A stretch of 20,446 bases of DNA, taken from the NCBI GenBank assembly GCA_039801885.1, contig JBDRVN010000034.1, positions 1 through 20,446 on the forward strand, written 5' to 3'. Positions within the stretch are counted from its first letter, which is position 1. Each line of letters opens with the position of its first letter. Both the position numbers and the translations under genes were made by a program. Of this stretch, positions 2,988 to 20,446 are shown in pieces. The stretch is from a candidate division WOR-3 bacterium (GTDB taxonomy: Bacteria; Hydrothermota; Tepidihabitantia; Tepidihabitantales; DTDR01). The notes below the pieces were generated by a model. The model had not been told where the DNA came from. It ran no database searches and saw only the letters and a list, made by a program, of their open reading frames with translations.

Positions 2988-4029
2988 CTACTTTTCCTTT
3001 TAATACTTTTTTAACAAGCGCCGCTCTTTTATAATCTCTTTCTTCTTCGCTAAGATTTTCGTCTTTCAAATAATACATCAAATTAGCCTTTTTCACAAGA
3101 ATAGTAAGAATATTAATTGTTAAGATAGAGACTTTTTTTATTATCCCCACGCAAACCCCCAATCGCAAAGTGGATAAAAGATTAATCGCTTCTTCGGAAG
3201 TTAAAAGTGTGGCATTAGTTAATATTCCATAGGCACGCCAAACTCTATCCTCAATTTCATTTTTTAAATTCTTCAAAAGATAATCCCTGGCTTTTCGTTC
3301 ATAATTAATAACTTGTATTATCAAATTTTTTGTATTTGTCATAATCTCCTCTTCTTTCATCCCAATTGTAAATTGATTAGCGATTTGAAAATAACTACCA
3401 ATTGTCTTTGTTCCTTCACCATAGATTCCTCTAATCAAAAAGCCAATACTTCTTGCCGCTTTTATTACTTTTTCCATATCATTAGTTAAAATTAATCCGG
3501 GTAAATGGAGCATTCCACTCGCTCGCATGCCGGTTCCCAAATTTGTGGGACAAGCAGTTAAAAAACCAAACTTTTCCGAAAAGGCATAAGGCAACTCTTT
3601 TTCTAATTTATCATCAATCTCATTTATTTTTACAAAAATTTCGTCTAAGGAAAATCCTTCTCCTAAAACCTGTAAACGTAAATGATCTTCCTCATTCACC
3701 ATAATGCTAATTTTCTCTTCGGAATCAATAAACACACCCTTTTTATTTTTACTTAAAACAAAATCAGGAGAGACTAAATGCCTTTCTAAAAGATAACTTA
3801 AAAAAATTTCGTTAAGCTGCTCATCGCTATAAAATTGGAAACTATTTAATTGGGTAATAACCTCTTTTATCTCTTCAATAACCTCTTCTTGTTCTTTTAA
3901 ACTAGCTTTTAAAAGGAAAAAATGATTATCCAAGTTTCGCGCAAATCTTATCCGCGAAGAAACACAAACATCCGATTCTTCGCGAATTTCTCTTAAAAAT
4001 CCTGGTATTAAATTCTTACTCAATTTCAT
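2980..4029 (-). CDS. mcsB: Protein arginine kinase McsB
   Basis: SSRIRFARNL, LLERHLVS, MVNEEDHLRLQ, GFLTACPTNLGTGMRAS, RGIYGEG, QIANQ and C-terminal RDxxRA (RDYKRA). Directly follows mcsA. Confidence 0.95.
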   Translation of the reverse strand: MKLSKNLIPGFLREIREESDVCVSSRIRFARNLDNHFFLLKASLKEQEEVIEEIKEVITQLNSFQFYSDEQLNEIFLSYLLERHLVSPDFVLSKNKKGVFIDSEEKISIMVNEEDHLRLQVLGEGFSLDEIFVKINEIDDKLEKELPYAFSEKFGFLTACPTNLGTGMRASGMLHLPGLILTNDMEKVIKAARSIGFLIRGIYGEGTKTIGSYFQIANQFTIGMKEEEIMTNTKNLIIQVINYERKARDYLLKNLKNEIEDRVWRAYGILTNATLLTSEEAINLLSTLRLGVCVGIIKKVSILTINILTILVKKANLMYYLKDENLSEEERDYKRAALVKKVLKGKVDE

Positions 4030-4549
4030 CTTTTTTTAACTCACTCTCTTTTTCTTTTAGTCTATCTCTAATTTTTGCTGCCTGCTCATAATCCTCTTCT
4101 TCAATTGCTTTTTTTAATTCTATTTTTAATTTTTTAATTTCGGAGAGCAAAAGGCTCTTTTTTGCTCCAAGGGTAATTCTTTTCCCTTTATGAAAAGCTT
4201 CATTTTCTCTTTCACGAATAGTTGTTTGAAGACGTTTAATAAAAGGAATTAATCGCTCTTCAAAAGTTTTGAAACAATCCGGACAACCAAATTTACCATA
4301 TTTTTTAAATTCATAAAAAGAAAGAAAACAACGGGGACATTTAAGTTCTTTATCTTCTTTTTCTTTTGCCTTAAGCATTATTTTTAAAATTTCATCAAGA
4401 TTCAATGTTTTATCACTTTCTAAAACCCCTTTTTTCTTCGCACATTCTTCACAAATTGCAATCTCTATTTTATTTCCTTTTTCATCAATTTCCGTAACTA
4501 CCATTACCGCAACGTTTTTATGGCAAATTTGACAAAGATTTTCTTCCAT
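4016..4549 (-). CDS. mcsA: McsB activator McsA (CxxC zinc motifs plus UVR domain)
   Basis: Four CxxC motifs (CQIC, CEEC, CPRC, CPDC), HKGK, and C-terminal UVR motif AIEEEDYEQAAKIRD. Confidence 0.94.
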   Translation of the reverse strand: MEENLCQICHKNVAVMVVTEIDEKGNKIEIAICEECAKKKGVLESDKTLNLDEILKIMLKAKEKEDKELKCPRCFLSFYEFKKYGKFGCPDCFKTFEERLIPFIKRLQTTIRERENEAFHKGKRITLGAKKSLLLSEIKKLKIELKKAIEEEDYEQAAKIRDRLKEKESELKKDEIE

Positions 4550-5231: not shown

Positions 5232-6429
5232 AACGTAAAGCATCAACTACTACTAAACTTGCTGCCTTTCTTGCGGGATAGATAGAAGCCAGTAGCGAAA
5301 TAGCCAGGGCGACGAAGATAGTTATTACCACATCAGTAAAAAAAAGTTTTGTCGGCAGATATTTAATAAAATAGACATCGGCGGGCAGATTAATAATCGG
5401 ATATTTTGACAAAATAAAAGAGATAAAAACACCAATTATTGCACCAATTATCGCGCCAAAAAAACCAACAAAAAATCCATAATAGAGAAAAATCTTCGTA
5501 ATTCTTTTGGTATTGCTACCCATTGCTTTTAAAATACCTATCTCCTTTGTCTTTCTTACGACCAGCATTGTTAAAGTAGCAACTATTCCAAAACAGGCAA
5601 TAATAATTAAAAGAGTTAAAACAATAAAAGTTACCACTTTTTCTAATTTTAAAGCGGCGAAGAGATTTTTGTTCAAAGTCTGCCAATCTATTGCCTGATA
5701 AGGATAAGGAAGTAATTTATTTATTCTTTTTGCCAATTCCCTTGCTTTATATAGGTTTTTCATTTTTAACTCCAAACCAGTTACCCGATTTCCGCAATCT
5801 AAAAGTCTTTGGGCAGTTTCTAAATCAATATAAACCAAACTGGCATTATAATCATACATTCCCGCATCAAAAATTCCTTTAACAATAAAATTTTCGGCTT
5901 TTGGTAGATAACCAAAGGGTGTTTTAATCGCCGCAAAGGGAGAATATAAGGTAACTTGGTCACCAACCGAAACAGAAAGAACCTTTGCCAAATCAATACC
6001 CAAAACAATTCCTGGCTGGGAACTGGAAGAGAAATCAAAAGCTCCTAAAATAATATTCTTTTCAATATCTAAACTTTTTTTCTCATTTTCCGGAATTATT
6101 CCGCGTAAAACAATTCCGTCAGAATAATGGAAACTTTTTATTAAGGTCTTAGTAAAAATAAAAGGAGTTAAAAATTCTATCTCTTTAATCTCTTTTAAAA
6201 TATTTACCAAAGAATCGGCATTCTCAATAAACTCATAATTTCTTTTAATAATAATCAGATGGGGTGTGTGACCCAAAATTCTTTTTTCTAATTCTAAATG
6301 AAACCCGTTCATTACCGAAAGGACAATAATAATACAAGCAACTCCCAAAGCAACGCTACCGATATTGATTAAGGAAATCAATTTCTTTCCTTTAATATAT
6401 TTTAAGGCAACAAATCTTTCAAAATTCAT
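5224..6429 (-). CDS. lolE: Lipoprotein-releasing ABC transporter permease (LolC/E family)
   Basis: GVACIIIVLSVMNGF, periplasmic domain, DWQTLNKNLFAALKLEK, KEIGILKAMG, YPARKAA. ATGA overlap with the lysS stop. C versus E cannot be resolved. Confidence 0.88.
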   Translation of the reverse strand: MNFERFVALKYIKGKKLISLINIGSVALGVACIIIVLSVMNGFHLELEKRILGHTPHLIIIKRNYEFIENADSLVNILKEIKEIEFLTPFIFTKTLIKSFHYSDGIVLRGIIPENEKKSLDIEKNIILGAFDFSSSSQPGIVLGIDLAKVLSVSVGDQVTLYSPFAAIKTPFGYLPKAENFIVKGIFDAGMYDYNASLVYIDLETAQRLLDCGNRVTGLELKMKNLYKARELAKRINKLLPYPYQAIDWQTLNKNLFAALKLEKVVTFIVLTLLIIIACFGIVATLTMLVVRKTKEIGILKAMGSNTKRITKIFLYYGFFVGFFGAIIGAIIGVFISFILSKYPIINLPADVYFIKYLPTKLFFTDVVITIFVALAISLLASIYPARKAASLVVVDALRYE

Positions 6430-8084
6430 TTCTCTTTTAATTGGGGAAAGAGAATTACTTCTCTAATTGCTGATTGATTAGTCAATATCATAACCAACCG
6501 GTCAATACCAATTCCCAAACCACCGCTCGGCGGCATACCGTACTCTAAGGCACAAATAAAATCTTCGTCCAAAGGGGTTTCATCCTCTTTTAATCTCAAA
6601 AGTTCTAAGAAACTCTCTTTTTGTCTTTGCGGATCATTCTCTTCGGAAAAGGCATTACCTAATTCAATTCCACCAATAAAAATTTCAAACCTTTCACATA
6701 ATAAAGGATTTTCCCGATGGGGTTTAGCCAAAGGAGTAGTAATTCTGGGGTGGTCAATCACAAAAGTTGGTTGGATAAGATATTTTTGAATTAAAGAAGA
6801 AAAGAGCTTATCTAACAATTTAGTTTTCGTTATCTCCTCTTTAAAATCTATCCCCAATTCTTTTGCTTTTTCTTTCAAAAACTTAAAAGGAATTTGTAAA
6901 ATATCTATCCCTAAAATTTCGTTTAAACTTTCGGTAAATTTTATTCTTTTAAAAGGCGGTTTTGTTTCAATCAAAAATTCAATTTCTGTATATCTTTCGC
7001 TACTTTTTTCTTCTCTATAGGACAGATTATTTCCCTTACAAAAATTAATCAACTCTTCACAGAAAGAGAGATATTCCTTTTCTTCATTATCTTTCTCTTT
7101 TGAATAGTAAATATTAATTTTATTAATATTAATTCCCTTCTCTTTTAACTCTTTAATCCTTAAAAAGATCTCTCTTCGGTTCTCTTCATCGTAATAAAAT
7201 TTTTCGCCGTAAATAAACTTATCATCATTATATAAATTCTTTACTAAAAAAAGAAATAGTTCTTCAAAAAGTTCCATCATTGTATAATAATCAGCATAGG
7301 CTTGATAGATTTCAATCTGGGTAAATTCTGGAGAATGGAACCGACTTATTCCTTCGTTTCGAAAATCCTTACCAATCTCGTAAACCCTTTCCAAATTACC
7401 AATTAACAATCTTTTAAGATAAAGCTCATCAGAAATCCTTAAATAAAATTCTTTATCCAAACTTTCATAAAAAGTTTTAAAAGGTGTGGCAAAAGCACCG
7501 CCATAAATTGGCTGTAAAATAGGTGTCTCCACTTCAATAAACCCTTTCTTATCAAGAAATTCACGGATTAAAGAAACAATCTTACTTCTTTTTAAAAAAA
7601 CTTCTCTTACTTCTTGGTTATTTAACAGATCTAAATATCTTTGGCGATAACGCAACTCTCTATCTCTTAATCCATGATATTTCTCACCAAAAGGTCTTAA
7701 TGACTTACTAAGTAGAACAAAATCCTTTACCAAAATAGTAATCTCACCAGTCTTTGTTTTAAAAACCTCACCGGAAACACCAATAAAATCGCCAATATCA
7801 AAAAGGTCTAAAAGTTCGTATTTCTCATTTAACATATCTTTTCGAAAATAAACTTGAATCTTATCATAACCATCAGCAATTGTATAAAACTTTGTCTTAC
7901 CAAAATCCCTTTCTAAATATATCCGACCGGCAACCCGAATCTCTTGTTTATTCTCAATAAATTTTTCATAATTTTCTTTAATTTCTCTACTTGTGTGAGT
8001 TCTCAAAAAAGAATAAGGATAGGAATTAATTTTCAGCTCTTTTAATTTCCTAATCTTTTCTTTTCTAATCTCGTATTCATCCAT
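6426..8084 (-). CDS. lysS: Lysine--tRNA ligase, class II, with a ~75-aa insertion
   Basis: OB-fold (VAGRI, GDFIGVSGEVFKTKTGEITI), RYRQRYLDL, FIEVETPILQ, ELYLKRL, FRNEG, and motif 3 YGMPPSGGLGIGIDRL. Likely start is ATG 8084; the track's TTG at 8120 is part of a -35-like hexamer. Confidence 0.96.
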   Translation of the reverse strand: MDEYEIRKEKIRKLKELKINSYPYSFLRTHTSREIKENYEKFIENKQEIRVAGRIYLERDFGKTKFYTIADGYDKIQVYFRKDMLNEKYELLDLFDIGDFIGVSGEVFKTKTGEITILVKDFVLLSKSLRPFGEKYHGLRDRELRYRQRYLDLLNNQEVREVFLKRSKIVSLIREFLDKKGFIEVETPILQPIYGGAFATPFKTFYESLDKEFYLRISDELYLKRLLIGNLERVYEIGKDFRNEGISRFHSPEFTQIEIYQAYADYYTMMELFEELFLFLVKNLYNDDKFIYGEKFYYDEENRREIFLRIKELKEKGININKINIYYSKEKDNEEKEYLSFCEELINFCKGNNLSYREEKSSERYTEIEFLIETKPPFKRIKFTESLNEILGIDILQIPFKFLKEKAKELGIDFKEEITKTKLLDKLFSSLIQKYLIQPTFVIDHPRITTPLAKPHRENPLLCERFEIFIGGIELGNAFSEENDPQRQKESFLELLRLKEDETPLDEDFICALEYGMPPSGGLGIGIDRLVMILTNQSAIREVILFPQLKEK

Positions 8085-8092
8085 AGATAAAA

Positions 8093-8120
8093 ATTTTAAA
8101 GGAAATAAAGGAAAAGTCAA
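8093..8120 (-). promoter_or_regulatory. Sigma70-like promoter of the lysS operon
   Basis: TTGACT (8120-8115), 16 nt, TAAAAT (8098-8093), 8 nt, ATG. No SD motif. Confidence 0.55.
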
Positions 8121-8122
8121 TC

Positions 8123-11100
8123 TTAAATTACGATTATTTTCCTTATTATTTCAAATTTTTGGGTTTTGAACTTTAATATATATACTCCTTTATTTAATTT
8201 TTTACTATCAATTAAAAAATATCCGCTATTACTAGTGGTGAATAAACAACGATTACCAAGCGCTGTATAAAGAGAAATTTGGGCAGGCATTTTAGAGAAA
8301 TAAATTTCAATAATTTTTTTATCTGCGGGATTTCTTTTAATTAATAAATCAAATTCTTTTTTAACTATTTTTTCTTCTTGGTTACCCACTATTTTTTGCA
8401 ATTGATAACTTTCTGACGGTAAATACATATAAAACTCTCTGCTATTATTACCTTTTATAGCAAAAATTCTGTCTCGCCACCAGGCTAAGGAGCCGCCTCC
8501 TTTAACTTTTTTACCACTGCCAAGAGGTAAATCTTCCAATTGTAACCAGCTATCTCTTTTTAATTCAAATCGCCAAAAATCCAAAGTATTCCCTCCTTTT
8601 AAAGCATAAATATATTCATTGGCATATACAATACTGCCACCTTTTTTAACCTTTTTCTTTTTTCCTTTACTATATAAAGGCAAATCAGGTAATTGCTGCC
8701 AACCAGAATCTGGATGATACTTAAAAAATTCATTCACCTTTGCTCCTCCTTTTAAAGCGTAAATATATTTATTATCCGTAGTTAAAGCACTTCCTTCACC
8801 AAATCCTTTCCCTGTTTTACCGCTGGGAGCACCAATATTTTCACTCCAACTATTTATTATTGGATCATACACATAAAATTCTAATCTATTCCCACCAGGA
8901 AGGCAATAAATTTTACCTTTATAAAAAACTAAAGAAGCACCTTTTTTAATCTTTTTTGAAGAAGGAATTTCTGGTAGACTTATCCATATTCCTAGGGAAT
9001 CACCTTTTACTCCATATTTATAAAATTCTCGGGTATTATTCCCTTTTAACAGATAAATCCACTTATTATTATCATAAGTAAGGGCACCACCACTTTTTAC
9101 CCTTTTTTTCTTCTCGCCATAAGGCACAGTATCTTTAAAATACCATTCATCTTCCGTTACAGAATAGATAAGTAAATCTAAAGTATTGTTACCCCTTAAA
9201 GCATAAAGAGAATCGCCTACGCAAACCATTGCTCCGCCATCTTTTATATTTTTGTTAGAAATCTCTTTTGTCACATCCTTTAATCGGTACCATCCTGGTA
9301 ATTTTACCACTACTTTAAAACTATCGGATAAAATATCATTAAAGGGATTTAAATCTTTATTCAAAAGTTTGCAAATAGTGATATATTTTCCAGTATCTAA
9401 ACAATAAAAACTCTCATAAATTACTTCTCTCTCTTCTTGAGGATTAACCATTGTTATTTGAGTATCACTATAAAAAATGGTATCGTTCTTAAAAATATTA
9501 AAAGTTGTGGCGATATTAAAAGGAAAATTATTATAATTTTTTATTTTTGCTTTTACCTTTTGGGGATAAAATGGATTGTAGAAAATTATTCCTTTAGGAG
9601 AGACGATTTTGGCAATACCAAAATCAAAATAGCTAATATTAAAATCACTATAAGCGGTATCATTATAGGGATTCTTATCTTTTCCAAATTTTAAAAAAGA
9701 TAAGCAGCAAAAATTGCCGGTATCTTGGACAACAAAAGGCGTAAATGACAAAGTTTCTTCTTCATTGGGCAAAATAGTAAAGTTTAAAGTATCGGAATAA
9801 ATAAAAGAATTTTGAAAGATAATACTAAATATCTGAATAAATTGACAAGATTTATTACTATAATTTTTAACAGCTACTTTAGGAATAAATACTCCCGGCG
9901 GTAAATTACCAACCGGTTGGATTATTTTTACTGTTCCCAAATCATAATAAACACAAGAGAAAAATTCTCGGAGTGTATCATTATTAGGATTCTGGTCATT
10001 ATTTAATTTTACTGAAGCAATACTTAAATATTCACCAATTTCACGTACTTGATAATTAGGAAAAATTAATAAAGTATCTTTATTAGGTGCTAATCTTAAA
10101 TAAATACTTTCGGTATATATTAGATTTCCTGATAAGAAGATTTTAAAATAACTATAAAAATCTTCAGCAAAGGCACCAAAATTTTTAACTTTTATTTTGG
10201 GTGTAATAAAACTATCAACAGGAACTTCTTCCTTCGGTTCCAATATCTCCATTACACCCACATCTCTGGCCGGTTTCAAACCTAATCCATAAATTTTATC
10301 AATCGCTACGCCATAATAATTTACACTGTTATCAGAACCAAAATGAAATCTTATCATTACACCGCCTGTTTCAATCGGAAGAACAACAAAGTTTAATTTC
10401 CAGTTCCTATCAATTTTAGAATAAGCCGATTCATAAGGAATACCAACATTACTACCGCTCATAATACCATCGTATCTTTGTCCATAACTTTCCATAGAAT
10501 GGGCAATATGCCAAGTAATTCCTCCATCTGATGAATATTTTACATTATAACCGTCCTGATTTTCTTCTGATTCATACCAATGCCAATAAGCAAATATTGG
10601 AAAAGGCCGGAGAATTAAAAATGGGAAGGTTGTCAATTTCCAATCAGCATTATTAAAATAATTACTATCTAATTTTGTTGCCCAAACCATTGTATCACCA
10701 TCTACTCCGTTTAAAGGTCCGGCATTAGGCTTTCCCCATTCCCAAGTATTTTCACGAGGATAGGGAGAAAAACCACCGCGATTCCTTTCAAAATTTTCAA
10801 AATAATTATAAACGCCACAAAAACTATTTTTAACATTATTTTCTAAGTTTTGGTCAAAAGCAAAATAAGTTGAACAGATAATAGAATAGATACCAGAAAT
10901 TAAATTTAAAGAAGAAAAATTAAGGGTTTCCTCATCATTAGGGGACAAAGAGAGAATTCTTAGAGAATCCAAATAATTCTCCCCTATTTTCATTGTTACT
11001 GAAATATTATTGGCGGTATTTAAACCGAAATTTTTGATAATTACCTTTGGTACATATTCTCCTTCTTCAATCATCCCTTTAGGAGAAATAATATCTTTTA

Positions 11101-13177
11101 CACCAATGTCCCAAAGCAACCGATCAGAAAAACCAATACCATAAATTTTATCAATTCTTGGACCAAAATAGTTTACTGAAGGATCTGAACCAAAATGAAA
11201 TTGCAAATAGAAAAAATTCCCTTGGTAAACAGGGATTTTCATCCAATTCATTTGCCAATCAGAACTACCGCAATAGACAGATTCATTTGTCACACCAACC
11301 GTAAATGGTGAAGCAATTGTTGTATACCTTTGTCCTAAATTAGGAAGAGAATGGATAATTTGCCAATTATTATCAGGAATTGAACACTTCACATTATAGC
11401 CATCGTAAAAATATTCAATATCATATTTATGCCAATAGACAACAACCGGTGAATCAATAAGGGCGTAATAACGGCAGGAATTAAGGCGAGAATTAGAATA
11501 ATTGGAATATCCATTTGTTGACCAGCAATGAGTATCACCACTCACACCAAATTCACCATATTCCCAATCAGAGGGTAAAATATTTAAAAAACCGCCGTTA
11601 GAAGATTCAAAGTTTTCGTAATAATCATAAATTGCTACCATGGTTTTTTTACTATTATTTATTGAATCTTCATCAAGAACAAAAAGGGTGGTGCATTTTA
11701 CTCGAAACCAAACAGATTCGTTCGGCATCCAAGAAGAAAAGTTTATTATCGTCTCTCTTTCTGGTAACAAAGAATCAATAGTTTTAATATCAAAATAATT
11801 TCCTGGTTGAATTTCTAATCTTAATTGAAAATTATAGGCAGTATTTAAACCATAATTTTTTATTAAGACCTGGGGGATTTTAGCCGTTCTTGATGTCGGT
11901 CCGTTGGGATTCAAGACGTTAACAATTCCAATATCATATCGGGGAGCAAAAAATCTTTTATAATAAATATTATAATAACCTCTTCTGGTATCCACCCAAG
12001 ATATATGAATATTTAAATCGTTGGATACAGTAATTGCTGGTGCCTGACGGAAAAACAAACCATTCGTTAATTCTTGTATATTGCTCCAACTACCATCAGC
12101 ATTTCTTTTTATATAAAGAAGTTGTGAATTTGTTTCTATTTCTTTTAACCATACTATATGAACATTATTAATTCCATCAACAGCAATCTTGGGAGAGTAA
12201 TTATTTATAAATCCACTGGTTAACTGTAAAATACTATCCCAGCCATTTCTTGTTTTCCTTCGATAGAAAATTTGTAAATAACCACGACCATTATCTCCGT
12301 ACCAAACGATATGAATAGTGCCGTTATTTTCTACAGCAATTTGCGGGTGAAAATTTCCAAAACGAGCGATAGAATTAATTGTAGTTACACTTTCAATATT
12401 ACTCCATTCACCATTTTCATTGCGAAAACGAAAATAAATTTGTTTAATTGTCTCAGATGTTGGTGAATATCCGCTCCAAACTATAAAAACCTGATTATTT
12501 TTATCAACAGCAATATCCGGATATTCCGAATGATAGTTCCAATAAGTTATAGTATCAATTTTAGAATGCCAACCTTCGTTACCTCTTCTTACATAGATAA
12601 TATTATTTTTATTATTTCCAAAAAGAGCATAATAAACAATATGAGCGGTATCGCCTTTTCCACAAGCAACTTTGGGATAATATTTATAAAGCCATCCGCC
12701 GGGAATAGTTTCTAATGAAGTAAAACCATAACCTAATATCCTTTTCCGATAAAAAGGTTTATTTCCCGTTGGCGAAATTGTCCGATAACCACGCCAGACA
12801 AAATGAAGATTCCCGTTAGAATCAGAAGCAATTGAAGGATAATAATTATTTCTGGTATTTTCATCAGAGACAAGGGTACAAGCACTAAAACTTCTCGTTA
12901 TCTGATCGTAACTCCGAAATTGTATATAATAATATTGAGGAGAACTACTTTTATACCGATACCAAACAAAATAAATTTTATTATTGGGTGAAGAAGTAAT
13001 ATGATTACAAAAATCTCCCTCATAATTATTTAAATTTATTGAATCAAAAGTGACATTAGTATCACCTTCCCAACTTAAGGTTTGGGGAAAATAATTATTA
13101 GAAGAAAAATCATTATAAAGAATACCTTTAGGAAAAAATTGAACACTACTTATTAAATATATTAAAAAATATAGCAT
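8123..13177 (-). CDS. Large secreted multidomain protein: beta-propeller, 5 CARDB-like Ig domains, 2 jelly-roll-like domains, Kelch-like repeats and T9SS type-A-like CTD
   Basis: PxIAVDxxxxxHxVW repeats at ~11955-13080. Five D(I/V/L/F)G...V.IKNxG...DxNxxN units. Two YxENFE...WEWG...DGYNVK...FHFGSDxSVNYxG..IDKIYG units. YALKGxNTxEF repeats at ~8415-9300. CTD ends ISLYTALG...KGVYILK...RKIIVI. Likely start is ATG 13177, because the track's GTG at 13201 lies inside a hairpin. Confidence 0.85.
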   Translation of the reverse strand: MLYFLIYLISSVQFFPKGILYNDFSSNNYFPQTLSWEGDTNVTFDSINLNNYEGDFCNHITSSPNNKIYFVWYRYKSSSPQYYYIQFRSYDQITRSFSACTLVSDENTRNNYYPSIASDSNGNLHFVWRGYRTISPTGNKPFYRKRILGYGFTSLETIPGGWLYKYYPKVACGKGDTAHIVYYALFGNNKNNIIYVRRGNEGWHSKIDTITYWNYHSEYPDIAVDKNNQVFIVWSGYSPTSETIKQIYFRFRNENGEWSNIESVTTINSIARFGNFHPQIAVENNGTIHIVWYGDNGRGYLQIFYRRKTRNGWDSILQLTSGFINNYSPKIAVDGINNVHIVWLKEIETNSQLLYIKRNADGSWSNIQELTNGLFFRQAPAITVSNDLNIHISWVDTRRGYYNIYYKRFFAPRYDIGIVNVLNPNGPTSRTAKIPQVLIKNYGLNTAYNFQLRLEIQPGNYFDIKTIDSLLPERETIINFSSWMPNESVWFRVKCTTLFVLDEDSINNSKKTMVAIYDYYENFESSNGGFLNILPSDWEYGEFGVSGDTHCWSTNGYSNYSNSRLNSCRYYALIDSPVVVYWHKYDIEYFYDGYNVKCSIPDNNWQIIHSLPNLGQRYTTIASPFTVGVTNESVYCGSSDWQMNWMKIPVYQGNFFYLQFHFGSDPSVNYFGPRIDKIYGIGFSDRLLWDIGVKDIISPKGMIEEGEYVPKVIIKNFGLNTANNISVTMKIGENYLDSLRILSLSPNDEETLNFSSLNLISGIYSIICSTYFAFDQNLENNVKNSFCGVYNYFENFERNRGGFSPYPRENTWEWGKPNAGPLNGVDGDTMVWATKLDSNYFNNADWKLTTFPFLILRPFPIFAYWHWYESEENQDGYNVKYSSDGGITWHIAHSMESYGQRYDGIMSGSNVGIPYESAYSKIDRNWKLNFVVLPIETGGVMIRFHFGSDNSVNYYGVAIDKIYGLGLKPARDVGVMEILEPKEEVPVDSFITPKIKVKNFGAFAEDFYSYFKIFLSGNLIYTESIYLRLAPNKDTLLIFPNYQVREIGEYLSIASVKLNNDQNPNNDTLREFFSCVYYDLGTVKIIQPVGNLPPGVFIPKVAVKNYSNKSCQFIQIFSIIFQNSFIYSDTLNFTILPNEEETLSFTPFVVQDTGNFCCLSFLKFGKDKNPYNDTAYSDFNISYFDFGIAKIVSPKGIIFYNPFYPQKVKAKIKNYNNFPFNIATTFNIFKNDTIFYSDTQITMVNPQEEREVIYESFYCLDTGKYITICKLLNKDLNPFNDILSDSFKVVVKLPGWYRLKDVTKEISNKNIKDGGAMVCVGDSLYALRGNNTLDLLIYSVTEDEWYFKDTVPYGEKKKRVKSGGALTYDNNKWIYLLKGNNTREFYKYGVKGDSLGIWISLPEIPSSKKIKKGASLVFYKGKIYCLPGGNRLEFYVYDPIINSWSENIGAPSGKTGKGFGEGSALTTDNKYIYALKGGAKVNEFFKYHPDSGWQQLPDLPLYSKGKKKKVKKGGSIVYANEYIYALKGGNTLDFWRFELKRDSWLQLEDLPLGSGKKVKGGGSLAWWRDRIFAIKGNNSREFYMYLPSESYQLQKIVGNQEEKIVKKEFDLLIKRNPADKKIIEIYFSKMPAQISLYTALGNRCLFTTSNSGYFLIDSKKLNKGVYILKFKTQKFEIIRKIIVI

Positions 13178-13191
13178 AAATAAATAATTAA

Positions 13192-13224
13192 AAAATATCA
13201 CCGGGGAGCAAATTGCTCCCCGGT
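13192..13224 (-). terminator. Probable intrinsic terminator downstream of the lipoprotein gene
   Basis: Inverted repeat ACCGGGGAGCAA-N-TTGCTCCCCGGT (13200-13224), followed on the minus strand by GATATTTTTT. Lies 13 nt after the stop at 13238. Confidence 0.75.
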
Positions 13225-13237
13225 ATCCTCTTTTTTA

Positions 13238-14260
13238 TTAGGGATCGATTTCTAAGAATGTGAGTTGATGATGAGCATCAATACAATTCACAATCGCTAT
13301 CAATTGTCCTCTTCTTGGATAGAAAAATCTTCCGAAAATCAAAGCTTTTGAAGCAAAAATCTTCTCGCGAGGTGTAAGTTCATCCCAAGATTTCTGATCG
13401 GATAGATACCAAATCACATTTTGAATTTCTGTTGGTGTATAGCCACTCTTATGGTTAATTACCCAATTAATCGGTCTCCATTTTGGGTAGCGGGCATAAT
13501 TAGGAAGATTGGGGTCATAGCTGGAATATAAAGTCACATCGTAATTCTGCCCAAGATAAATATATCTTTGGCGGTCGACACACCAACCATAATAAGTTCC
13601 GTTTCCAATGCTGTATCCGGGCGGAACGTTGGAAAGCAAATATTCATAGTAGTAATTGTTTGACCAGACTCTTACGAATTTGAGAGTTACAGCATCTTGA
13701 GGTAACCTTACTCTTTTCTTGGGACAGAGACAAAAATATCTTCCCCAATTACTGCCAGGAAACGGATTACCATTACCCCAACCAGTTTCTTCACGATTTT
13801 TTTCTCCACCAATAATTTCGCAAACGACACAATGAGCAGCAAAATATAACTCTTCTAATTGTGACCATTCACCCAGTGGAATTGTAAAAGTATAAGATTG
13901 GGTAGGCTCGGTTAGTTCAACTGCATAAGCAAATTGTCCAGGCACTGGATTTCCTTTTACTTGCGGAATATCACTTAAACTGGCACCAATATGAAGATGG
14001 CATTCTGTTAAATACCAATTGTCGGTAGTAAGATATTTCACATAGACATTATCTTCGTCAAACCAAACTTCGATGTCACCAACATCCAAATTCTGACCAG
14101 CAATAATATCAGTCGCATAAGCATCGCCTAAATCCCTGATTGTTTGCGAAGCACTCTGGGGAATGTTGAGATTAGATTCCTCTTTTTTACAACCAACAAG
14201 GATCAAGAAAATTGGCAGCAAAACAAAAAGTAATTTAAATGTTTTGTTTCGCATTTTCAC
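13238..14260 (-). CDS. Lipoprotein with an uncharacterised N-terminal domain and a putative C-terminal thioester (TED/TQXA-like) domain
   Basis: Lipobox LVGC24. C-terminal half has GWC227VD, IQ280NVIW284 and terminal HQ332LTFL. The start may be ATG 14254, 5 nt after AAGGAG. Confidence 0.75.
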   Translation of the reverse strand: MKMRNKTFKLLFVLLPIFLILVGCKKEESNLNIPQSASQTIRDLGDAYATDIIAGQNLDVGDIEVWFDEDNVYVKYLTTDNWYLTECHLHIGASLSDIPQVKGNPVPGQFAYAVELTEPTQSYTFTIPLGEWSQLEELYFAAHCVVCEIIGGEKNREETGWGNGNPFPGSNWGRYFCLCPKKRVRLPQDAVTLKFVRVWSNNYYYEYLLSNVPPGYSIGNGTYYGWCVDRQRYIYLGQNYDVTLYSSYDPNLPNYARYPKWRPINWVINHKSGYTPTEIQNVIWYLSDQKSWDELTPREKIFASKALIFGRFFYPRRGQLIAIVNCIDAHHQLTFLEIDP

Positions 14261-14362: not shown

Positions 14363-17300
14363 TCATTTTAGTACCACCACCTTTCTCACTTTACCATCTT
14401 CATTTTTGACAAAGTAAACACCCATTTTCAGTTTATTTACCTCTCTCATCAACAACCCTCCAGTAATAGAATATATTTTTATATTTCCCCTCTTCAATAT
14501 AATATTTTCAATTTTCTTATTTTTTGAAATTAAAACTCCCGAAATATTATTCTTCTTTTCCTTCATAAAGGAATTTGGTGAAGGATTATAAAACCAAAAT
14601 TCTTTTGTCTTATTACCTAAAAAAGCAAAGATACCACCGACAAAAGAAGAATAAGTAAGAGCGGCACCATCTTTCACTTTTTTATTAAGTTTCCCTGTAG
14701 GATAACCAAAATCCTCAATTTGATGCCAAATATCTCTTTCTAAATCATAATAATAAAATTCATTAGTATTATTACCTTTTAAAGTATAAATGAATAAACC
14801 ATCAAAGGTGGCACAACATCCTTTTTTTGCCTTCTTTTTCCTCATCTCTCTATTAAATAAAGGCAAATCAGCCACTCTCCGGAAGAGAGATTCAAAATTT
14901 TTAAGGTCTAATTTGTAAAATTCATTATCTCTTCCGCCTACCCTTAAACCATAAATATTTCCTTGGGCATAAATTATGAAGCTTCCCGACTTCCATTTCT
15001 TATTAGGTAATTTTGGTGGATTAGGAATAAACCAAGAATCCCAATTTTTATTATAAACCAGCCATTCATCATTTCCTGAACCAGGAATTAAATAGAACAG
15101 ACTATCACCGTCATAGGTAATTGATGGCCACTTAATCTTTTTATTTAAAAATGGATATTTCAATTCTTTATAAGTATCTTTTAAGGGGTTATATTGTAAA
15201 AATTTTTCTGAAGTCAAAATATAAAGATAATACTTATCACTGATTAAGACACTCCTATTAATTTTTCTTAAAGGTATCTCGCTCTTCTTTTGCCATAATT
15301 CTTCTTTTATATTATAAACCCATAATTCATTACAATTATTTCCCACAATTGCATAAACCTTATCATTAATGCAAGTTAACGAACCTCCGCTTCTTACTGG
15401 TTTGGTACTCGGAATATCCGGTTTTTTAGACCATCCTAAATTGGGAAAAAGAGTAGTTGGATTATAAAATTTACCAAAAATTCTCATTGTTAAATATTTA
15501 TTTCCACCCCAACCAACATAGCAAACCAATATTTTAGCATCTCCCTTTACTAACGAAGGTGTAATATCCCATTTTTGATAATTAGCAATCGGAAAAATTG
15601 CCAAAACCGAATTCTGTAAATTTATTTTGGCACCAAAAATATCTCCAAAATTATTACGATAATCCTCCCAAACTACTAAATAATTATCACCATCAAAAAT
15701 TATTTCACAATTTATCTGGTCTCCAGGTAAAACCGCTATTGGTTTAGGAGAAGAATCAATAAGGATTCCGTCCTTAGAAACCTGAGAAGAATAAATATCA
15801 AAATGGTTGCCTTTCCATAACTGATAGACAACTAAATAGTTATTACCATCAAATGCTAAAGATGGTTTATAGCGCCAATAAAACCCAGTAGCAATCAATA
15901 TTCCAAAAGTATCAATCACTTCGCCATTTCTCTTAATCCTTGCGCCATAAATCTCGTCCCAATGACCTTTTCTTTCATCCTGCCAGACAACAAAATAAGA
16001 ATTATCACCATAAGATATTTTCGGAAAAAGTTGATTACCTTTCACCGTGCAGATTGGTATGCCATTAACATCTAAAACTCTACCATTTCTATCAATCCGG
16101 GCACCATAAATATCAGCATTATTATTACGATAATCCTCCCAAACTACTAAATAATTCTCACCATCAAAGGAAACACAGGGATTTTTCTCATCTTTTGTGC
16201 GAAAAGAAATTGGTATTCCTATTGTATCAAGAAGAATACCTTCTTTCGTTATCCGGGCACCATAAATATCAGCATTATTATTACGATAATCCTCCCAAAC
16301 TACTAAATAATTCTCACCATCAAAGGAAATTTTTGGTAAAATCTGATTATTAAAAGCAGCAGTGACCACTATCGGTTTTTCCCATATTTGTTTTCCTTCT
16401 TCATCAATCTTCATTCCGTAAATATCCTTTTCTCCCTCTCTTTCTTCCTCCCAAACTACTAAATAATTATCACCATCAAAAATCACTGATGGTTGATATT
16501 GTTCATTTGCTGAGATTGTTATCAAAATCTCTTGCAAATTTAACTTATTCTTACCAGAGATTTTAATACCATAAATATCGCTTATATCATTATTTCTTAA
16601 ATCCTCCCAAATAGCAAAATAATTATTGCCATCAAATATAATTTTCGGTAGCCATTGATTACCATCAGCAGAAACCAACATAAAACTGTCAATTACTAAA
16701 CCATTTCTATTAACGATTGCTCCGTAAATATCCGTCTCTACCCCATTTCTTAAATCCTCCCAAATTATAAAATAATTCATTCCATCAAAGGCAATTGCGG
16801 GAAGGCGCTGGTTGGAATTTGCCTTAGTAATACAAATATCAAAGGTATCCAAAATTGTGCCATCTTCTTTTATTCTTTTTCCATAAATATCAGAAAAATC
16901 ACCATTACGATGATCAGTCCAACAGACAAAGTAATTATTACCCTCAAAAGAAAGAGCCGGTGAATATTGAAAACTATTTTCAGCACAAATAGTTATTCTA
17001 TTATGGATAACCTGCCCTTCTTTATTAACTAAAATTCCGTAAACATCAGAAGTATCTTGGCCAATCCAAGTTGTCCAGGCGATTAAATAATAATTGTTGC
17101 CAAACACAATTGCTGGTGCAACATCAATATTTTCTCCTTGATAAATAGGAAAACCATTCGGGTCTAAAACAGTTCCATCTTTTGTTATTCGAGCACCATA
17201 GATATCACCATTATCATTTCGCCAATCCTCCCAAACTACTAAATAGTTCTCGCCATCAAAACTAACTACGGGAAACCATTGGTCGTTTAAAGCCTCACAA

Positions 17301-17815
17301 ATTGGAAAACCAATTGTATCTAAGACTATTCCATTTTTATCAATAAAGGTTCCATAAATATCACCGTAAAAACTGAAACGATAATCCTCCCAAACTACTA
17401 AATAATTCTCACCATCAAAAGCAACCGCTGGAGCAAACTGATTACCCGAAATAGTAGAAATTGGTATTCCACAAAGGTCAATAACTACACCATTTTTACT
17501 AACTCGGGCACCATAAATATCAATATCCCTTCGCCAATCCTCCCAAACTACCAAATAGTTCTCGCCATCAAAAGCAAAAGAAGGAGTTGATTGATAGCCT
17601 GGGGTCGGAAAATAAAAAATTGTCGTATCTACAAGAAACTCATTTTCTCCTAAAGAAAAATCAATAAATTTTTTATAATTTTTATAAGAACTTTTATCAA
17701 AAGAAATATATTTTTCTAATCTTATATACCTTCTTTTTAATTTTTCTGAATAAATATAATTACTTTTTAAATTTACAAAATTACCAATAATTAAAATAAT
17801 TAAAATATTTGTCAT
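14363..17815 (-). CDS. Secreted protein: 14 ~52-aa propeller repeats, Kelch-like repeats and a short T9SS-like CTD
   Basis: 14 units of PxxxFDGxNYLVVWEDxR...DIYGARI, consistent with two 7-bladed propellers. Kelch-like block at ~14585-15440. Ends IKIYSITG...MGVYFVK...RKVVVLK. Likely start is ATG 17815, downstream of a promoter motif; the track start is 17875. Confidence 0.85.
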   Translation of the reverse strand: MTNILIILIIGNFVNLKSNYIYSEKLKRRYIRLEKYISFDKSSYKNYKKFIDFSLGENEFLVDTTIFYFPTPGYQSTPSFAFDGENYLVVWEDWRRDIDIYGARVSKNGVVIDLCGIPISTISGNQFAPAVAFDGENYLVVWEDYRFSFYGDIYGTFIDKNGIVLDTIGFPICEALNDQWFPVVSFDGENYLVVWEDWRNDNGDIYGARITKDGTVLDPNGFPIYQGENIDVAPAIVFGNNYYLIAWTTWIGQDTSDVYGILVNKEGQVIHNRITICAENSFQYSPALSFEGNNYFVCWTDHRNGDFSDIYGKRIKEDGTILDTFDICITKANSNQRLPAIAFDGMNYFIIWEDLRNGVETDIYGAIVNRNGLVIDSFMLVSADGNQWLPKIIFDGNNYFAIWEDLRNNDISDIYGIKISGKNKLNLQEILITISANEQYQPSVIFDGDNYLVVWEEEREGEKDIYGMKIDEEGKQIWEKPIVVTAAFNNQILPKISFDGENYLVVWEDYRNNNADIYGARITKEGILLDTIGIPISFRTKDEKNPCVSFDGENYLVVWEDYRNNNADIYGARIDRNGRVLDVNGIPICTVKGNQLFPKISYGDNSYFVVWQDERKGHWDEIYGARIKRNGEVIDTFGILIATGFYWRYKPSLAFDGNNYLVVYQLWKGNHFDIYSSQVSKDGILIDSSPKPIAVLPGDQINCEIIFDGDNYLVVWEDYRNNFGDIFGAKINLQNSVLAIFPIANYQKWDITPSLVKGDAKILVCYVGWGGNKYLTMRIFGKFYNPTTLFPNLGWSKKPDIPSTKPVRSGGSLTCINDKVYAIVGNNCNELWVYNIKEELWQKKSEIPLRKINRSVLISDKYYLYILTSEKFLQYNPLKDTYKELKYPFLNKKIKWPSITYDGDSLFYLIPGSGNDEWLVYNKNWDSWFIPNPPKLPNKKWKSGSFIIYAQGNIYGLRVGGRDNEFYKLDLKNFESLFRRVADLPLFNREMRKKKAKKGCCATFDGLFIYTLKGNNTNEFYYYDLERDIWHQIEDFGYPTGKLNKKVKDGAALTYSSFVGGIFAFLGNKTKEFWFYNPSPNSFMKEKKNNISGVLISKNKKIENIILKRGNIKIYSITGGLLMREVNKLKMGVYFVKNEDGKVRKVVVLK
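15480..17600 (-). repeat. Intragenic tandem repeat array with ~156-bp period
   Basis: Core cctcccaaactac(t/c)aaata recurs at about 15664, 16135, 16291, 16447, 17227, 17386 and 17539. Exact 79-bp identity between 16095-16173 and 16251-16329. Confidence 0.9.
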
Positions 17816-17832
17816 AGCCCAGATCTTAAAGA

Positions 17833-17860
17833 AGTATAATAAAAATTTTAAATAAGTCAA
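17833..17860 (-). promoter_or_regulatory. Sigma70-like promoter
   Basis: TTGACT (17860-17855), 16 nt, TATACT (17838-17833), 17 nt upstream of ATG 17815. Confidence 0.6.
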
Positions 17861-18146
17861 GTTATTTTTTGACAAGTATCTTCTTATTTTTCAATGATTT
17901 AGAAAATTTTATTTTTAAAAACTAAGGGGGTCCAATTATTCTTTTTAGAAAAAACTGAAAAAAACAATTAAAATATCTGCCTAAATCCGACAACGAAATT
18001 CAATTAACAAAGAGCGTAAGAAAATCTTTATCAATCCTCTTCAGTGGTTCATTATTATAATCATTTTCTTAAAATCCTTATTAGTGGTATTATCTCGTCC
18101 TACAAGAGTATATTAACTGATAATTTTCCCCTATTTTAATTTTTCT

Positions 18147-20021: not shown

Positions 20022-20446
20022 TTAATGGATTACCAATTTCTTGGTTGCCTTATACTCATTGGCAGCAAACTTCATAATGTAAATACCGGTAGAGAATTTC
20101 TTGGTATCAATTGTGAAGTAGCCTTTGTCCGAAGTACCATTATAGACAATCTCACCAAGGGCATTGTAAATCTTTAATGTCGCCTTGATATTAACCGGTA
20201 ATGTGTAGGAAACTTTCAGATAATCTCTTGTCGGGATAATAGTCAATGTGAAGTTCTTTAAGTTCTTTGTCTCAACTTGGATTCCATTATTACCCGATGG
20301 ATTAGCACTTGCTAAGAATGTTCCTCCAGGAGTATAGGACCAAAATTCATTTGTATTATTACCGACAAAGGCAAAGAGACAAGCAGCAGCCGAAGAATAC
20401 GTTAAGGAACCGCCACCTTTCACTCGCTTTGCTGGTGTGCCTTCGG
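20022..20446 (-). CDS. 3' end of a secreted protein (last Kelch-like repeat plus T9SS type-A-like CTD); 5' part outside the window
   Basis: Frame is open to the window edge (...EGTPAKRVKGGGSLTYSSAAACLFAFVGNNTNEFWSY), so the track's start at 20423 is an internal Val. CTD reads ATLKIYNALGEIV...STGIYIMKF...TKKLVIH. Confidence 0.88.
   Translation of the reverse strand, partial: EGTPAKRVKGGGSLTYSSAAACLFAFVGNNTNEFWSYTPGGTFLASANPSGNNGIQVETKNLKNFTLTIIPTRDYLKVSYTLPVNIKATLKIYNALGEIVYNGTSDKGYFTIDTKKFSTGIYIMKFAANEYKATKKLVIH

Follow-up and report, generated by a model that had tools for sequence, protein, structure and literature searches.

Can a lipoprotein from outside the Gram-positive bacteria carry the internal thioester by which Gram-positive adhesins bind their targets covalently? 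This question was raised by one gene in a 20,446-nucleotide stretch of DNA from a candidate division WOR-3 bacterium (hereafter the window; contig JBDRVN010000034.1, positions 1 to 20,446), where an initial annotation had proposed a Cys-Gln thioester domain (TED) on a lipid-anchored protein. To our knowledge, no other bacterial adhesin module is known to bind its target covalently; TEDs are also under development as protein-ligation tools. The published accounts that we consulted treat TEDs as Gram-positive, and in a Science Advances paper (October 2026) they are still assigned to 'Firmicutes and Actinobacteria'. A full-text search, whose results were titles and the openings of abstracts, returned no literature on a TED from Gram-negatives or archaea.

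Results

The gene lies at 13238..14260 on the minus strand and encodes a lipoprotein of 340 amino acids from a GTG start; an alternative ATG is found at residue 3 (14254-14252), where the database copy of the protein (P0002) begins. Its signal peptide and lipobox L-V-G-C (14189..14260, minus strand) predict from the sequence that Cys24 is the lipidated residue. Codons were checked singly: Cys24 is encoded at 14191-14189, and the reading frame ends at the stop codon 13240-13238. A lipobox-like motif was also present in 35 of the 53 homologues with the same architecture, as counted by a regular expression that showed a few misses and false hits on inspection by eye. The mature N-terminus C-K-K-E-E-S (14174..14191, minus strand) matches by eye the surface-lipoprotein export signal C-X-K-(D/E)2-X of Bacteroidetes, and a flexible linker follows at residues 25–44 (14129..14188, minus strand), with AlphaFold2 pLDDT below 50 for residues 22–44. 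The remainder comprises two domains. The first is an N-terminal beta-sandwich scaffold of 139 amino acids (residues 42–180; 13721..14137, minus strand), and the second is a compact C-terminal thioester-like domain of 159 amino acids (residues 182–340; 13241..13717, minus strand). The span 13238-13720, to which the initial annotation had assigned the TED, corresponds to residues 181–340 plus the stop codon.

A setting outside the Gram-positive bacteria had been supposed for this gene, and the surrounding genes agree with that supposition. LysRS was 86–89% identical to 'candidate division WOR-3' proteins, two nearby ORFs contained T9SS type A sorting domains above cut-off, and LolCE and LolD were the best NCBIfam matches among nearby genes in the window. 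These genes suggest an outer membrane in WOR-3 cells. The stop codon is immediately followed by a terminator-like hairpin (13189..13225, minus strand), which lies between the lipoprotein gene and the downstream gene. It has a 12-bp stem with 8 G-C pairs and, after it, a T-rich tail; five terminator-like sites were found, versus 1.2 expected from shuffles. The hairpin also overlaps with the mechanically assigned GTG start of the ORF that follows. Neither domain has a further copy within the window, and five related loci revealed no conserved neighbour, operon partner or target. The earlier idea that neighbouring secreted proteins are the targets thus gained no support, with no neighbour conserved and the hairpin separating the downstream gene.

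We used the AlphaFold2 model of the C-terminal domain alone (pLDDT 95.9, pTM 0.91) for a Foldseek search of the PDB. Among the matches listed, all ranks to 21 were streptococcal or clostridial TED entries, namely SfbI, Cpa, C. perfringens TIE or FNE (5dcq, which is SfbI-like). The best match was 5a0l (E = 2.1e-4, probability 1.0), and the first unrelated match had E = 0.16 and probability 0.03. Similarity to the PDB TEDs was moderate, with query-normalised TM values of 0.45–0.52 and rmsd of 6–7 Å. The full-length model likewise returned TEDs at ranks 1–11, and class II TED entries matched worse (6fwv, probability 0.75; 6fwy, 0.10). The TED fold of beta regions flanking three core helices, which had been named beforehand as a check, is therefore predicted for this domain, its top PDB matches being exclusively TEDs.

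By the published definition, TEDs carry Cys and Gln motifs in strands and a Q..W motif in the central helix (PMC4450167), and the order and secondary-structure context of the motifs in the modelled domain agree with that definition. The [YFL]-C-Φ-ζ motif is found in a beta-strand as W226-C227-V-D, with Trp replacing Y/F/L, within the string Y-Y-G-W-C227-V-D (13574..13594, minus strand) that ends strand 221–227; Cys227 (codon TGT, 13582-13580) is the proposed thioester Cys. The helix WRPINWVINH (13451..13480, minus strand) lies in helix 261–269 and includes the family-specific residues N265 (96/104 homologous domains) and N269 (99/104). The TQxxΦWΦxζ motif (PMC4450167), which is not essential in known TEDs, appears in the central helix as E-I-Q280-N-V-I-W284-Y-L-S, within T-E-I-Q280-N-V-I-W284-Y-L-S-D (13397..13432, minus strand; helix 276–286; Gln280 at 13423-13421 and Trp284 at 13411-13409). 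Here the residue preceding Gln280 is Ile/Val, in place of the Thr of 'TQxA'. Lastly, the ΦQζΦΦ motif near the C-terminal strand is present as H-Q332-L-T-F-L, within H-Q332-L-T-F-L-E-I (13247..13270, minus strand), which runs into the last strand 334–338 and contains the proposed thioester Gln, Gln332 (13267-13265). The initial annotation had named the lipobox LVGC and the strings YYGWC227VD, EIQ280NVIW284 and HQ332LTF in this order; all occur in the translation of 13238-14260 (minus strand) with matching codons, and the secondary structure that it had assumed was reproduced by the AlphaFold2 model in the strands and helices given above.

Conservation was counted in 104 homologous domains, drawn from 98 of the 154 collected proteins. 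Cys227 was kept in 102/104 and was preceded by an aromatic residue in 103/104 (Trp226 in 85/104). Gln280 was kept in 95/104, Ala or Val at position 282 in 99/104 and Trp284 in 101/104, and 94 of the 95 ungapped rows contained Gln332. The domain is most strongly conserved at these four residues, Cys227, Gln280, Trp284 and Gln332. Conservation of the Cys and Gln in homologues had been set beforehand as a test, and the aligned sequences passed it: the conservation of the Cys/Gln/Trp/Gln set is far beyond chance. When 20 domain-only sequences were aligned by hand, Cys and Gln280 proved invariant and Gln332 was present in 19/20; in the relative L025, Gly occupies the Gln332 column, and a Gln stands five positions further on, in the Glu337 column. 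Because of this displaced Gln, the identity of the reacting Gln across the family is not fully secure.

Profile searches gave a divided answer. The window protein matched no family of Pfam or NCBIfam at E ≤ 10, and the C-terminal domain alone also matched none; a sequence search of the PDB, using phmmer with the protein and three family profiles, found no TED, and phmmer with two PF08341-positive relatives found none either. PF08341 matched 5 of the 35 scanned relatives, and one of these, P0015 (23.9 bits, E = 5.7e-5), exceeded the gathering cut-off of 22 bits. At E ≤ 1 the same model matched 10 of 20 domain-only relatives, where rival families each matched at most one member. Automated annotation already partly covers the family, since precomputed PF08341 assignments exist for 7 of 120 longer relatives, among those listed, and NCBI has named one relative, from a metagenome-assembled genome, 'thioester domain-containing protein [Bacteroidetes bacterium]'. 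An HMM built only from 12 PF08341-positive relatives covered residues 184–339 end to end (93.8 bits) and aligned Cys227, Gln280 and Gln332 with its conserved C, Q and Q; position 4 of Pfam PF08341 is the conserved Cys in the four relatives counted through (P0015, P0064, P0131 and P0133). The nearest ESM Atlas clusters (scores 0.87–0.89) contain PF08341 in 11–23% of members, which is a weak lead only. That is, the expected recognition by a TED profile was obtained for relatives, and the window protein itself has no direct match to any such profile.

The viral glycoprotein HCMV UL130 was a repeated weak match of the family profiles (E = 0.055 with A2, 0.0058 with A6), which we reject and attribute to chance or to local convergence. 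Among the Foldseek PDB matches listed for the full-length and domain-only searches, UL130 did not appear.

The closest known proteins are the class I TEDs of Gram-positive adhesins (PF08341), namely SfbI-TED 5a0l, the Cpa N-terminal TED 4c0z, Cpa 2xi9 and the C. perfringens TIE-TED 5a0g. These TEDs gave the highest-ranking structural matches of the C-terminal domain, no other match being confident, and they share its three motifs in the same order and secondary-structure context. The domain has no seven-stranded beta-sandwich insert, the hallmark of class II TEDs (PMC9210967). Its Cys-to-Gln spacing is 105 residues, versus 129 and 153 in two solved TEDs (PMC4450167), and because of this shorter spacing parts of the canonical TED fold are missing. 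Whereas Gram-positive TEDs have [YFL]-C and T-Q, the window domain has W-C and [IV]-Q. Typical TIE adhesins contain an N-terminal TED on an LPXTG-anchored, sortase-attached stalk of isopeptide or ester domains (PMC4450167); in contrast, the window protein has its TED at the C-terminus and a lipobox as anchor, and Pfam revealed no Cna-B/SpaA or other stalk domain in it. The hosts differ as well, WOR-3 here versus Firmicutes or Actinobacteria for known TEDs.

Covalent capture through a Cys-Gln thioester is known from Gram-negatives in the bacterial alpha-2-macroglobulins (A2Ms), such as E. coli ECAM/YfhM. ECAM, like the window protein, is a lipoprotein of a diderm bacterium, and A2Ms are roughly 1600–1700 amino acids long. 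Their fold and motif are unrelated to those described here, with a contiguous CxEQ in an all-helical domain that needs proteolytic activation; that bacterial A2Ms form the thioester is stated in the literature on them. We rejected an A2M- or complement-type thioester because CxEQ is present at none of the eight cysteines; fold and profile searches gave no such match with confidence, and C3b (7bag) ranked 46 in the full-length Foldseek search at chance level (E = 0.23, probability 0.05). A papain- or transglutaminase-like Cys enzyme was rejected because a Cys-His(-Asp) set is not conserved in the C-terminal domain (His270, 50/104), and this fold was absent among the matches. A Cys227-Cys326 disulfide was likewise not accepted for the family, since position 326 lacks conservation and Cys is not among its six commonest residues.

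Members of the C-terminal domain family were found in WOR-3, Planctomycetota, Bacteroidota, Caldisericia, cyanobacteria, and Asgard or methanogenic archaea. The family is large and almost unannotated across outer-membrane bacteria and archaea. Its members on large surface proteins, which come from cyanobacteria, Planctomycetota, Bacteroidota and Asgard or methanogenic archaea, include two Coleofasciculus proteins with SdrD-B/SpaA repeats (P0157 and P0160), P0011, which carries a T9SS tail, and P0073, which carries cadherin/PKD repeats. These relatives share the C-terminal domain with its conserved Cys/Gln/Trp/Gln, and often the same N-terminal domain; many have the TED inserted into the N-terminal domain just before its last strands (N-C-N), and it is also found repeated or on a long repeat stalk. 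Unlike them, the window protein is a short, two-domain lipoprotein.

No Pfam or NCBIfam model matched the N-terminal domain. Its alignment revealed the conserved residues Q56, E86, H88, H143, E158, T159, W82, W161 and W172. Foldseek matches of this domain were weak, to 4iyk and SOD-like proteins; 4iyk, a putative carbohydrate-binding protein, ranked 12 with the full-length model at probability 0.99 and a TM of only 0.20–0.29. Among 80 fetched loci, the N-terminal domain occurred without the C-terminal domain in 75 and with it in 5. The search pattern came from the N-terminal domain, and these loci therefore sample the scaffold family rather than the TED.

Discussion

From four independent lines, namely conservation, the PF08341 link through relatives, the predicted fold and the weak ESM Atlas lead, we concluded that the C-terminal domain and the TEDs of Gram-positive adhesins are homologous, and that this domain is a compact, very divergent TED that standard models miss. 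What would be new is a compact TED subfamily with lipid anchoring, a new scaffold domain, an insertion architecture and a wide phyletic range.

By analogy with class I TEDs, we hold with moderate confidence that the window encodes a lipid-anchored, probably surface-exposed two-domain protein, whose class-I-like TED would make a thioester and capture amines. The computation shows the homology, the fold and the conservation, and bond formation, surface exposure, reactivity and target are what we infer. Cys227 and Gln332 would react on folding, without a helper enzyme, to give an internal thioester with the loss of NH3. The beta-sheet and the helical sub-domain would enclose the thioester, and Gln280 and Trp284 of the central helix would pack against the Cys backbone. 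The thioester would then be attacked by a primary amine on the target, from a lysine of a protein, a polyamine or an amino-sugar, leaving a covalent amide link from the cell surface to the target.

The TED fold might instead hold a Cys conserved for redox sensing, metal binding or catalysis, with no thioester made. The absence of a direct TED profile match for the window protein and an only moderate fold match are consistent with such a role. We consider it unlikely, however, because the TED-defining residues Cys227, Gln280, Trp284 and Gln332 are the very positions that are best conserved, and because the 104 domains contain neither a second conserved Cys nor a conserved His (H270, only 50/104) for a catalytic pair, metal site or disulfide.

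If the thioester does form, the direction in which the lipoprotein faces has to be considered. Diderm lipoproteins face the periplasm by default, LolCE/LolD-like genes are present in the window, and the protein is without the T9SS C-terminal domain found in relative P0011 or any other outward-secretion tag. The domain could then tether the membrane covalently to an amine-bearing component of the envelope, for example a stem peptide of the peptidoglycan or a polyamine. We judge this to be quite improbable. The CKKEES sequence fits the surface export signal, a rule defined in PMC5080379 and validated in Bacteroidetes only, the host here being of the WOR-3 lineage. Moreover, relatives of the domain occur on T9SS-tagged, cadherin/PKD/SdrD-rich surface proteins and in archaea without peptidoglycan, and these relatives suggest that the domain generally binds outward. 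An ordinary lipoprotein that binds its ligand, for example a glycan, non-covalently, with the beta-sandwich as the binder and the C-terminal domain as a structural cap, would accord with 4iyk as the best non-TED fold match of the scaffold and with the 75 loci in which the scaffold stands alone, but it is very doubtful, leaving the near-invariant Cys/Gln/Trp/Gln set and the TED homology unexplained.

Beyond the amine-capturing surface lipoprotein that we favour, thioester 'harpoon' adhesion could be an old, prokaryote-wide surface chemistry instead of something peculiar to Gram-positive pathogens, a view that we offer as a speculation with little probability. The window protein would then be the minimal lipoprotein form of a large unannotated family with the TED on or in a new beta-sandwich scaffold, whose conserved Gln/His/Glu/Thr set might form a cross-link of its own or bind a metal, and the WOR-3 outer membrane would be covalently fastened to a partner, which might be another cell, a mineral-bound or polymeric amine, or a giant T9SS-secreted protein of the same cell. 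If this were true, diderm bacteria and archaea would possess a sortase-independent means of covalent surface attachment. Should the bond form in the WOR-3 protein, covalent adhesion biology would extend to environmental microbes, and the domain would be a very small (159 amino acids) thioester module.

Relationship to recognised thioester domains

The ORF at 13238–14260 (−) encodes 340 residues, and its translation contains every string quoted in the initial annotation, at correct codon coordinates. That annotation had proposed a Cys-Gln thioester domain (TED) in the C-terminal half of the protein, to be checked by profile search. The Pfam TED model (PF08341) missed the window protein itself, which had no Pfam, NCBIfam or PDB sequence match even at E ≤ 10. 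Among its relatives, PF08341 was matched by 5 of the 35 with unusual architecture, by 4 of the 53 same-architecture homologues at E ≤ 1, and by 10 of the 20 domain-only sequences, in which no competing family matched more than one member. One stored relative, P0015 (E = 5.7e-5, 23.9 bits), passed the gathering score of 22. When longer proteins were searched by profile, 182 of 8000 scored candidates proved to be relatives; among the 120 listed, seven carried precomputed PF08341 matches and one was named ‘thioester domain-containing protein [Bacteroidetes bacterium]’.

An HMM made from only 12 PF08341-positive relatives covered residues 184–339 of the window protein over the full profile length, with 93.8 bits (E = 4.7e-31, in a one-sequence search). 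Cys227, Gln280 and Gln332 aligned with the conserved Cys and Gln positions of this profile. Counted by hand, position 4 of the Pfam profile is the conserved Cys in relatives P0015, P0064, P0131 and P0133; we take this position to be the thioester Cys. We concluded from these computations that the C-domain is homologous to TEDs. It is small, with a Cys-Gln spacing of 105 residues versus 129 in CpTIE and 153 in PnTIE (PMC4450167).

Conservation of the C-domain

Conservation was counted over 104 C-domains from 98 of the 154 stored proteins. Both proposed thioester residues are kept in homologues, Cys227 in 102 of the 104 domains and Gln332 in 94 of 95 ungapped rows. Position 226 is aromatic in 103 domains (Trp in 85), and Asp229 is present in 70, with Glu in 15 and Gln in 13. 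Also conserved were Asn265 (96/104), Asn269 (99/104), Gln280 (95/104), Ala/Val282 (99/104) and Trp284 (101/104); no conserved His was seen in the 104 domains. Cys326, named initially as a possible disulfide partner of Cys227, was rejected as a family-wide partner, position 326 being unconserved across the same domains.

Walden et al. give three TED motifs, [YFL]CΦζ, TQxxΦWΦxζ and ΦQζΦΦ, of which the first and third, around Cys and Gln, lie in strands and the second, around TQ, lies in a helix (PMC4450167). The C-domain consensus, G-x-Y-x-G-W-C-[VAL]-D ... [VI]-N-[YW]-[IL]-[LI]-N followed by [DE]-[IV]-Q-x-A-I-W-Y-F ... V-Q-L-T-F-I-E-V-D-P, corresponds to them one to one. At one related locus, L025 from a Eubacteriales MAG, the Gln sits in the Glu337 column; in principle, a different Gln could react in the N-C-N subfamily, where the TED is inserted in the scaffold domain.

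Predicted structure

A full-length AlphaFold2 model, with the 53 same-architecture homologues as input alignment, had a mean pLDDT of 88.5 and a pTM of 0.78. It consists of a disordered linker (residues 22–44), an all-beta domain (about 48–178) and an alpha/beta C-domain with strands at 191–199, 204–210, 221–227, 239–246, 321–326 and 334–338 and helices at 254–257, 261–269, 276–286 and 297–309. In this model Cys227 lies at a strand end, Gln280 and Trp284 are on the central helix, and the last strand is entered from Gln332.

The C-domain modelled alone (pLDDT 95.9, pTM 0.91) is predicted to have the fold that the initial annotation expected, as all listed Foldseek matches in the PDB to rank 21 were TED-bearing entries. 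The best was SfbI-TED (5a0l; E = 2.1e-4, probability 1.0); others were the Cpa N-terminal TED (4c0z), the C. perfringens TIE-TED (5a0g, 5a0d), and TED-bearing entries of Cpa (2xi9, 2xid, 2xic, 4bug) and FNE (5dcq). Class II TEDs matched more weakly (6fwv, probability 0.75; 6fwy, 0.10), and the first unrelated row had E = 0.16 and probability 0.03. The similarity was moderate, with an rmsd of 6–7 Å and a query-normalised TM of 0.45–0.52 against single-domain TED targets. Ranks 1–11 for the full-length model were likewise TEDs, and an ESM Atlas look-up, taken only as a lead, favours the TED family too.

Family profiles also gave a weak, repeated match to HCMV glycoprotein UL130 (E = 0.055 and 0.0058), spanning the IWYL helix to the last strand (residues ~274–338; 13247–13440 (−)). 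This match is probably due to chance, because UL130 entries were absent among the Foldseek PDB rows shown.

Domain architecture and taxonomic range

A word-indexed search yielded just 6 relatives in addition to the window protein. When 1.84 billion cluster representatives were searched exhaustively, 4498 matched at E ≤ 1e-3, 2253 at E ≤ 1e-10 and 116 at E ≤ 1e-30. HMMs of the two halves, run over the 154 stored proteins, located the N-domain (residues 42–180) in 148 and the C-domain (182–340) in 98, with 104 domains. The two are separable modules. P0150 and P0152 have a C-domain and no N-domain, P0011 has three C-domains and a T9SS tail, and P0073 has two together with cadherin, PKD and Ig repeats. 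In many proteins, first seen in P0008, a C-domain or another insert lies within the N-domain, before its last strands (EETGWG...NWG.YF).

The N-domain (13721–14137 (−)), a beta-sandwich, belongs to a large family that spans many bacterial and archaeal phyla and has no match among Pfam or NCBIfam models. Its insertion point is fixed and hosts TEDs or other inserts of 170–200 aa; in Flavobacterium the domain forms tandem lipoproteins. Its conserved polar residues (Q56 78%, E86 81%, H88 86%, H143 93%, E158 81%, T159 90%) are candidates for a metal site or for a self-made, ester-type cross-link between Thr and Gln.

The genome scan used an N-domain pattern and so sampled the scaffold family; 266 stretches matched, 160 were confirmed and 80 were kept. 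These loci include Flavobacterium, Chitinophagales, Planctomycetota, Myxococcota, Chloroflexota, Spirochaetota, Caldisericia, Alcanivorax, Methanosarcina, Thermoplasmata and Asgard archaea, and the Bacteroidota N-domain proteins are nearly all lipoproteins. Only 5 of the 80 contain a C-domain, in N-C order (scaffold, then TED) in Planctomycetota and in N-C-N order in the Eubacteriales MAG, a Promethearchaeota MAG, Caldisericia and Bacteroidales. No neighbour is conserved at these five loci, where flanking genes mostly encode other large secreted proteins. L025 (9896–11257) is the only Firmicutes-labelled locus with a C-domain; a neighbouring gene encodes a TonB C-terminal domain, unexpected for a monoderm, and may point to a diderm Firmicute or a binning error. 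The 16 organism names on C-domain relatives, among the longer relatives listed, cover cyanobacteria, Planctomycetota, Acidobacteriota, Bacteroidetes, Methylomirabilota, Asgard archaea and methanogens; none was from Firmicutes or Actinobacteria, in a subfamily-seeded search that could not find canonical TEDs.

Gene, anchor and envelope

The GTG start is preceded by AAGGTAAGGA, and the database copy begins at an ATG two codons downstream of that GTG. The protein carries lipoprotein anchor signals: residues 1–24 form a signal peptide with the lipobox L-V-G-C at its end, and a simple regular expression found a lipobox-like motif in 35 of the 53 same-architecture homologues. In its mature form the protein begins with C-K-K-E-E-S, in agreement with C-X-K-(D/E)2-X, the optimal signal for lipoprotein export to the Bacteroidetes cell surface (PMC5080379), a rule tested in Bacteroidetes only, the host here being WOR-3.

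The non-Gram-positive setting was borne out. The lysyl-tRNA synthetase shares 86–89% identity with proteins that bear the name ‘candidate division WOR-3 bacterium’ and supply 6 of its 9 best non-self matches; LolCE (339 bits, below the cut-off of 362) and LolD (251 bits, below 308) are the best NCBIfam matches of genes in the window; and T9SS type A sorting domains scored above cut-off in the 1692-aa ORF directly downstream and in a 133-aa ORF (20022–20423). The Lol matches and sorting domains indicate an outer membrane, which we infer from genes because WOR-3 is, to our knowledge, uncultured.

A strong terminator-like hairpin (12-bp stem and T-tail, 13189–13225 (−)) follows the stop of the TED gene, so that co-transcription of this gene with the giant one downstream is unlikely. 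For the 1692-aa ORF, the listed GTG start (13201) falls within the hairpin stem; translation of this ORF probably begins at a more downstream position. Giant secreted proteins with BNR, CARDB, Kelch and beta-propeller repeats lie on both sides (8123–13201 (−) and 14363–17875 (−)); nothing speaks for or against them as targets.

Other genes of the window were also of note. The lysyl-tRNA synthetase (6426–8120 (−)) is long, 564 aa by mechanical ORF and 552 aa in the database copy; its profile matches are split into two parts, and for many relatives the best aligned segment covers only ~52%, which suggests an insertion common to its closest WOR-3 relatives. At 2980–4549 (−), an McsB protein-arginine kinase that exceeds its cut-off with 402 bits lies beside an McsA-like activator. 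In this WOR-3-like genome the two adjoin selA and dnaN; the pair is known mainly from Firmicutes.

Proposed mechanism and relation to known TEDs

The protein would be exported by Sec, lipidated at Cys24 and transported to the outer membrane, where it would probably be flipped to the cell surface. The C-domain would then fold, and attack of Cys227 on the side-chain amide of Gln332 would produce a buried thioester. This bond would be opened by an amine of the target, which would become amide-linked to Gln332 while Cys227 is set free, as has been demonstrated for SfbI with fibrinogen (PMC4450167); the scaffold domain would act as a spacer or second binding surface.

TEDs are described as a Gram-positive feature in the accessible text of PMC4450167, PMC13685950 and PMC9210967, and that of PMC12617251 says nothing on their range. 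Work on TEDs outside Gram-positives was not found in the open full-text literature, judged mostly by titles and opening lines of abstracts. Databases already label a few C-domain relatives as TED. Because the literature so seen places TEDs in Gram-positives and a few relatives already bear the label, we regard the window protein as a variant of known TEDs.
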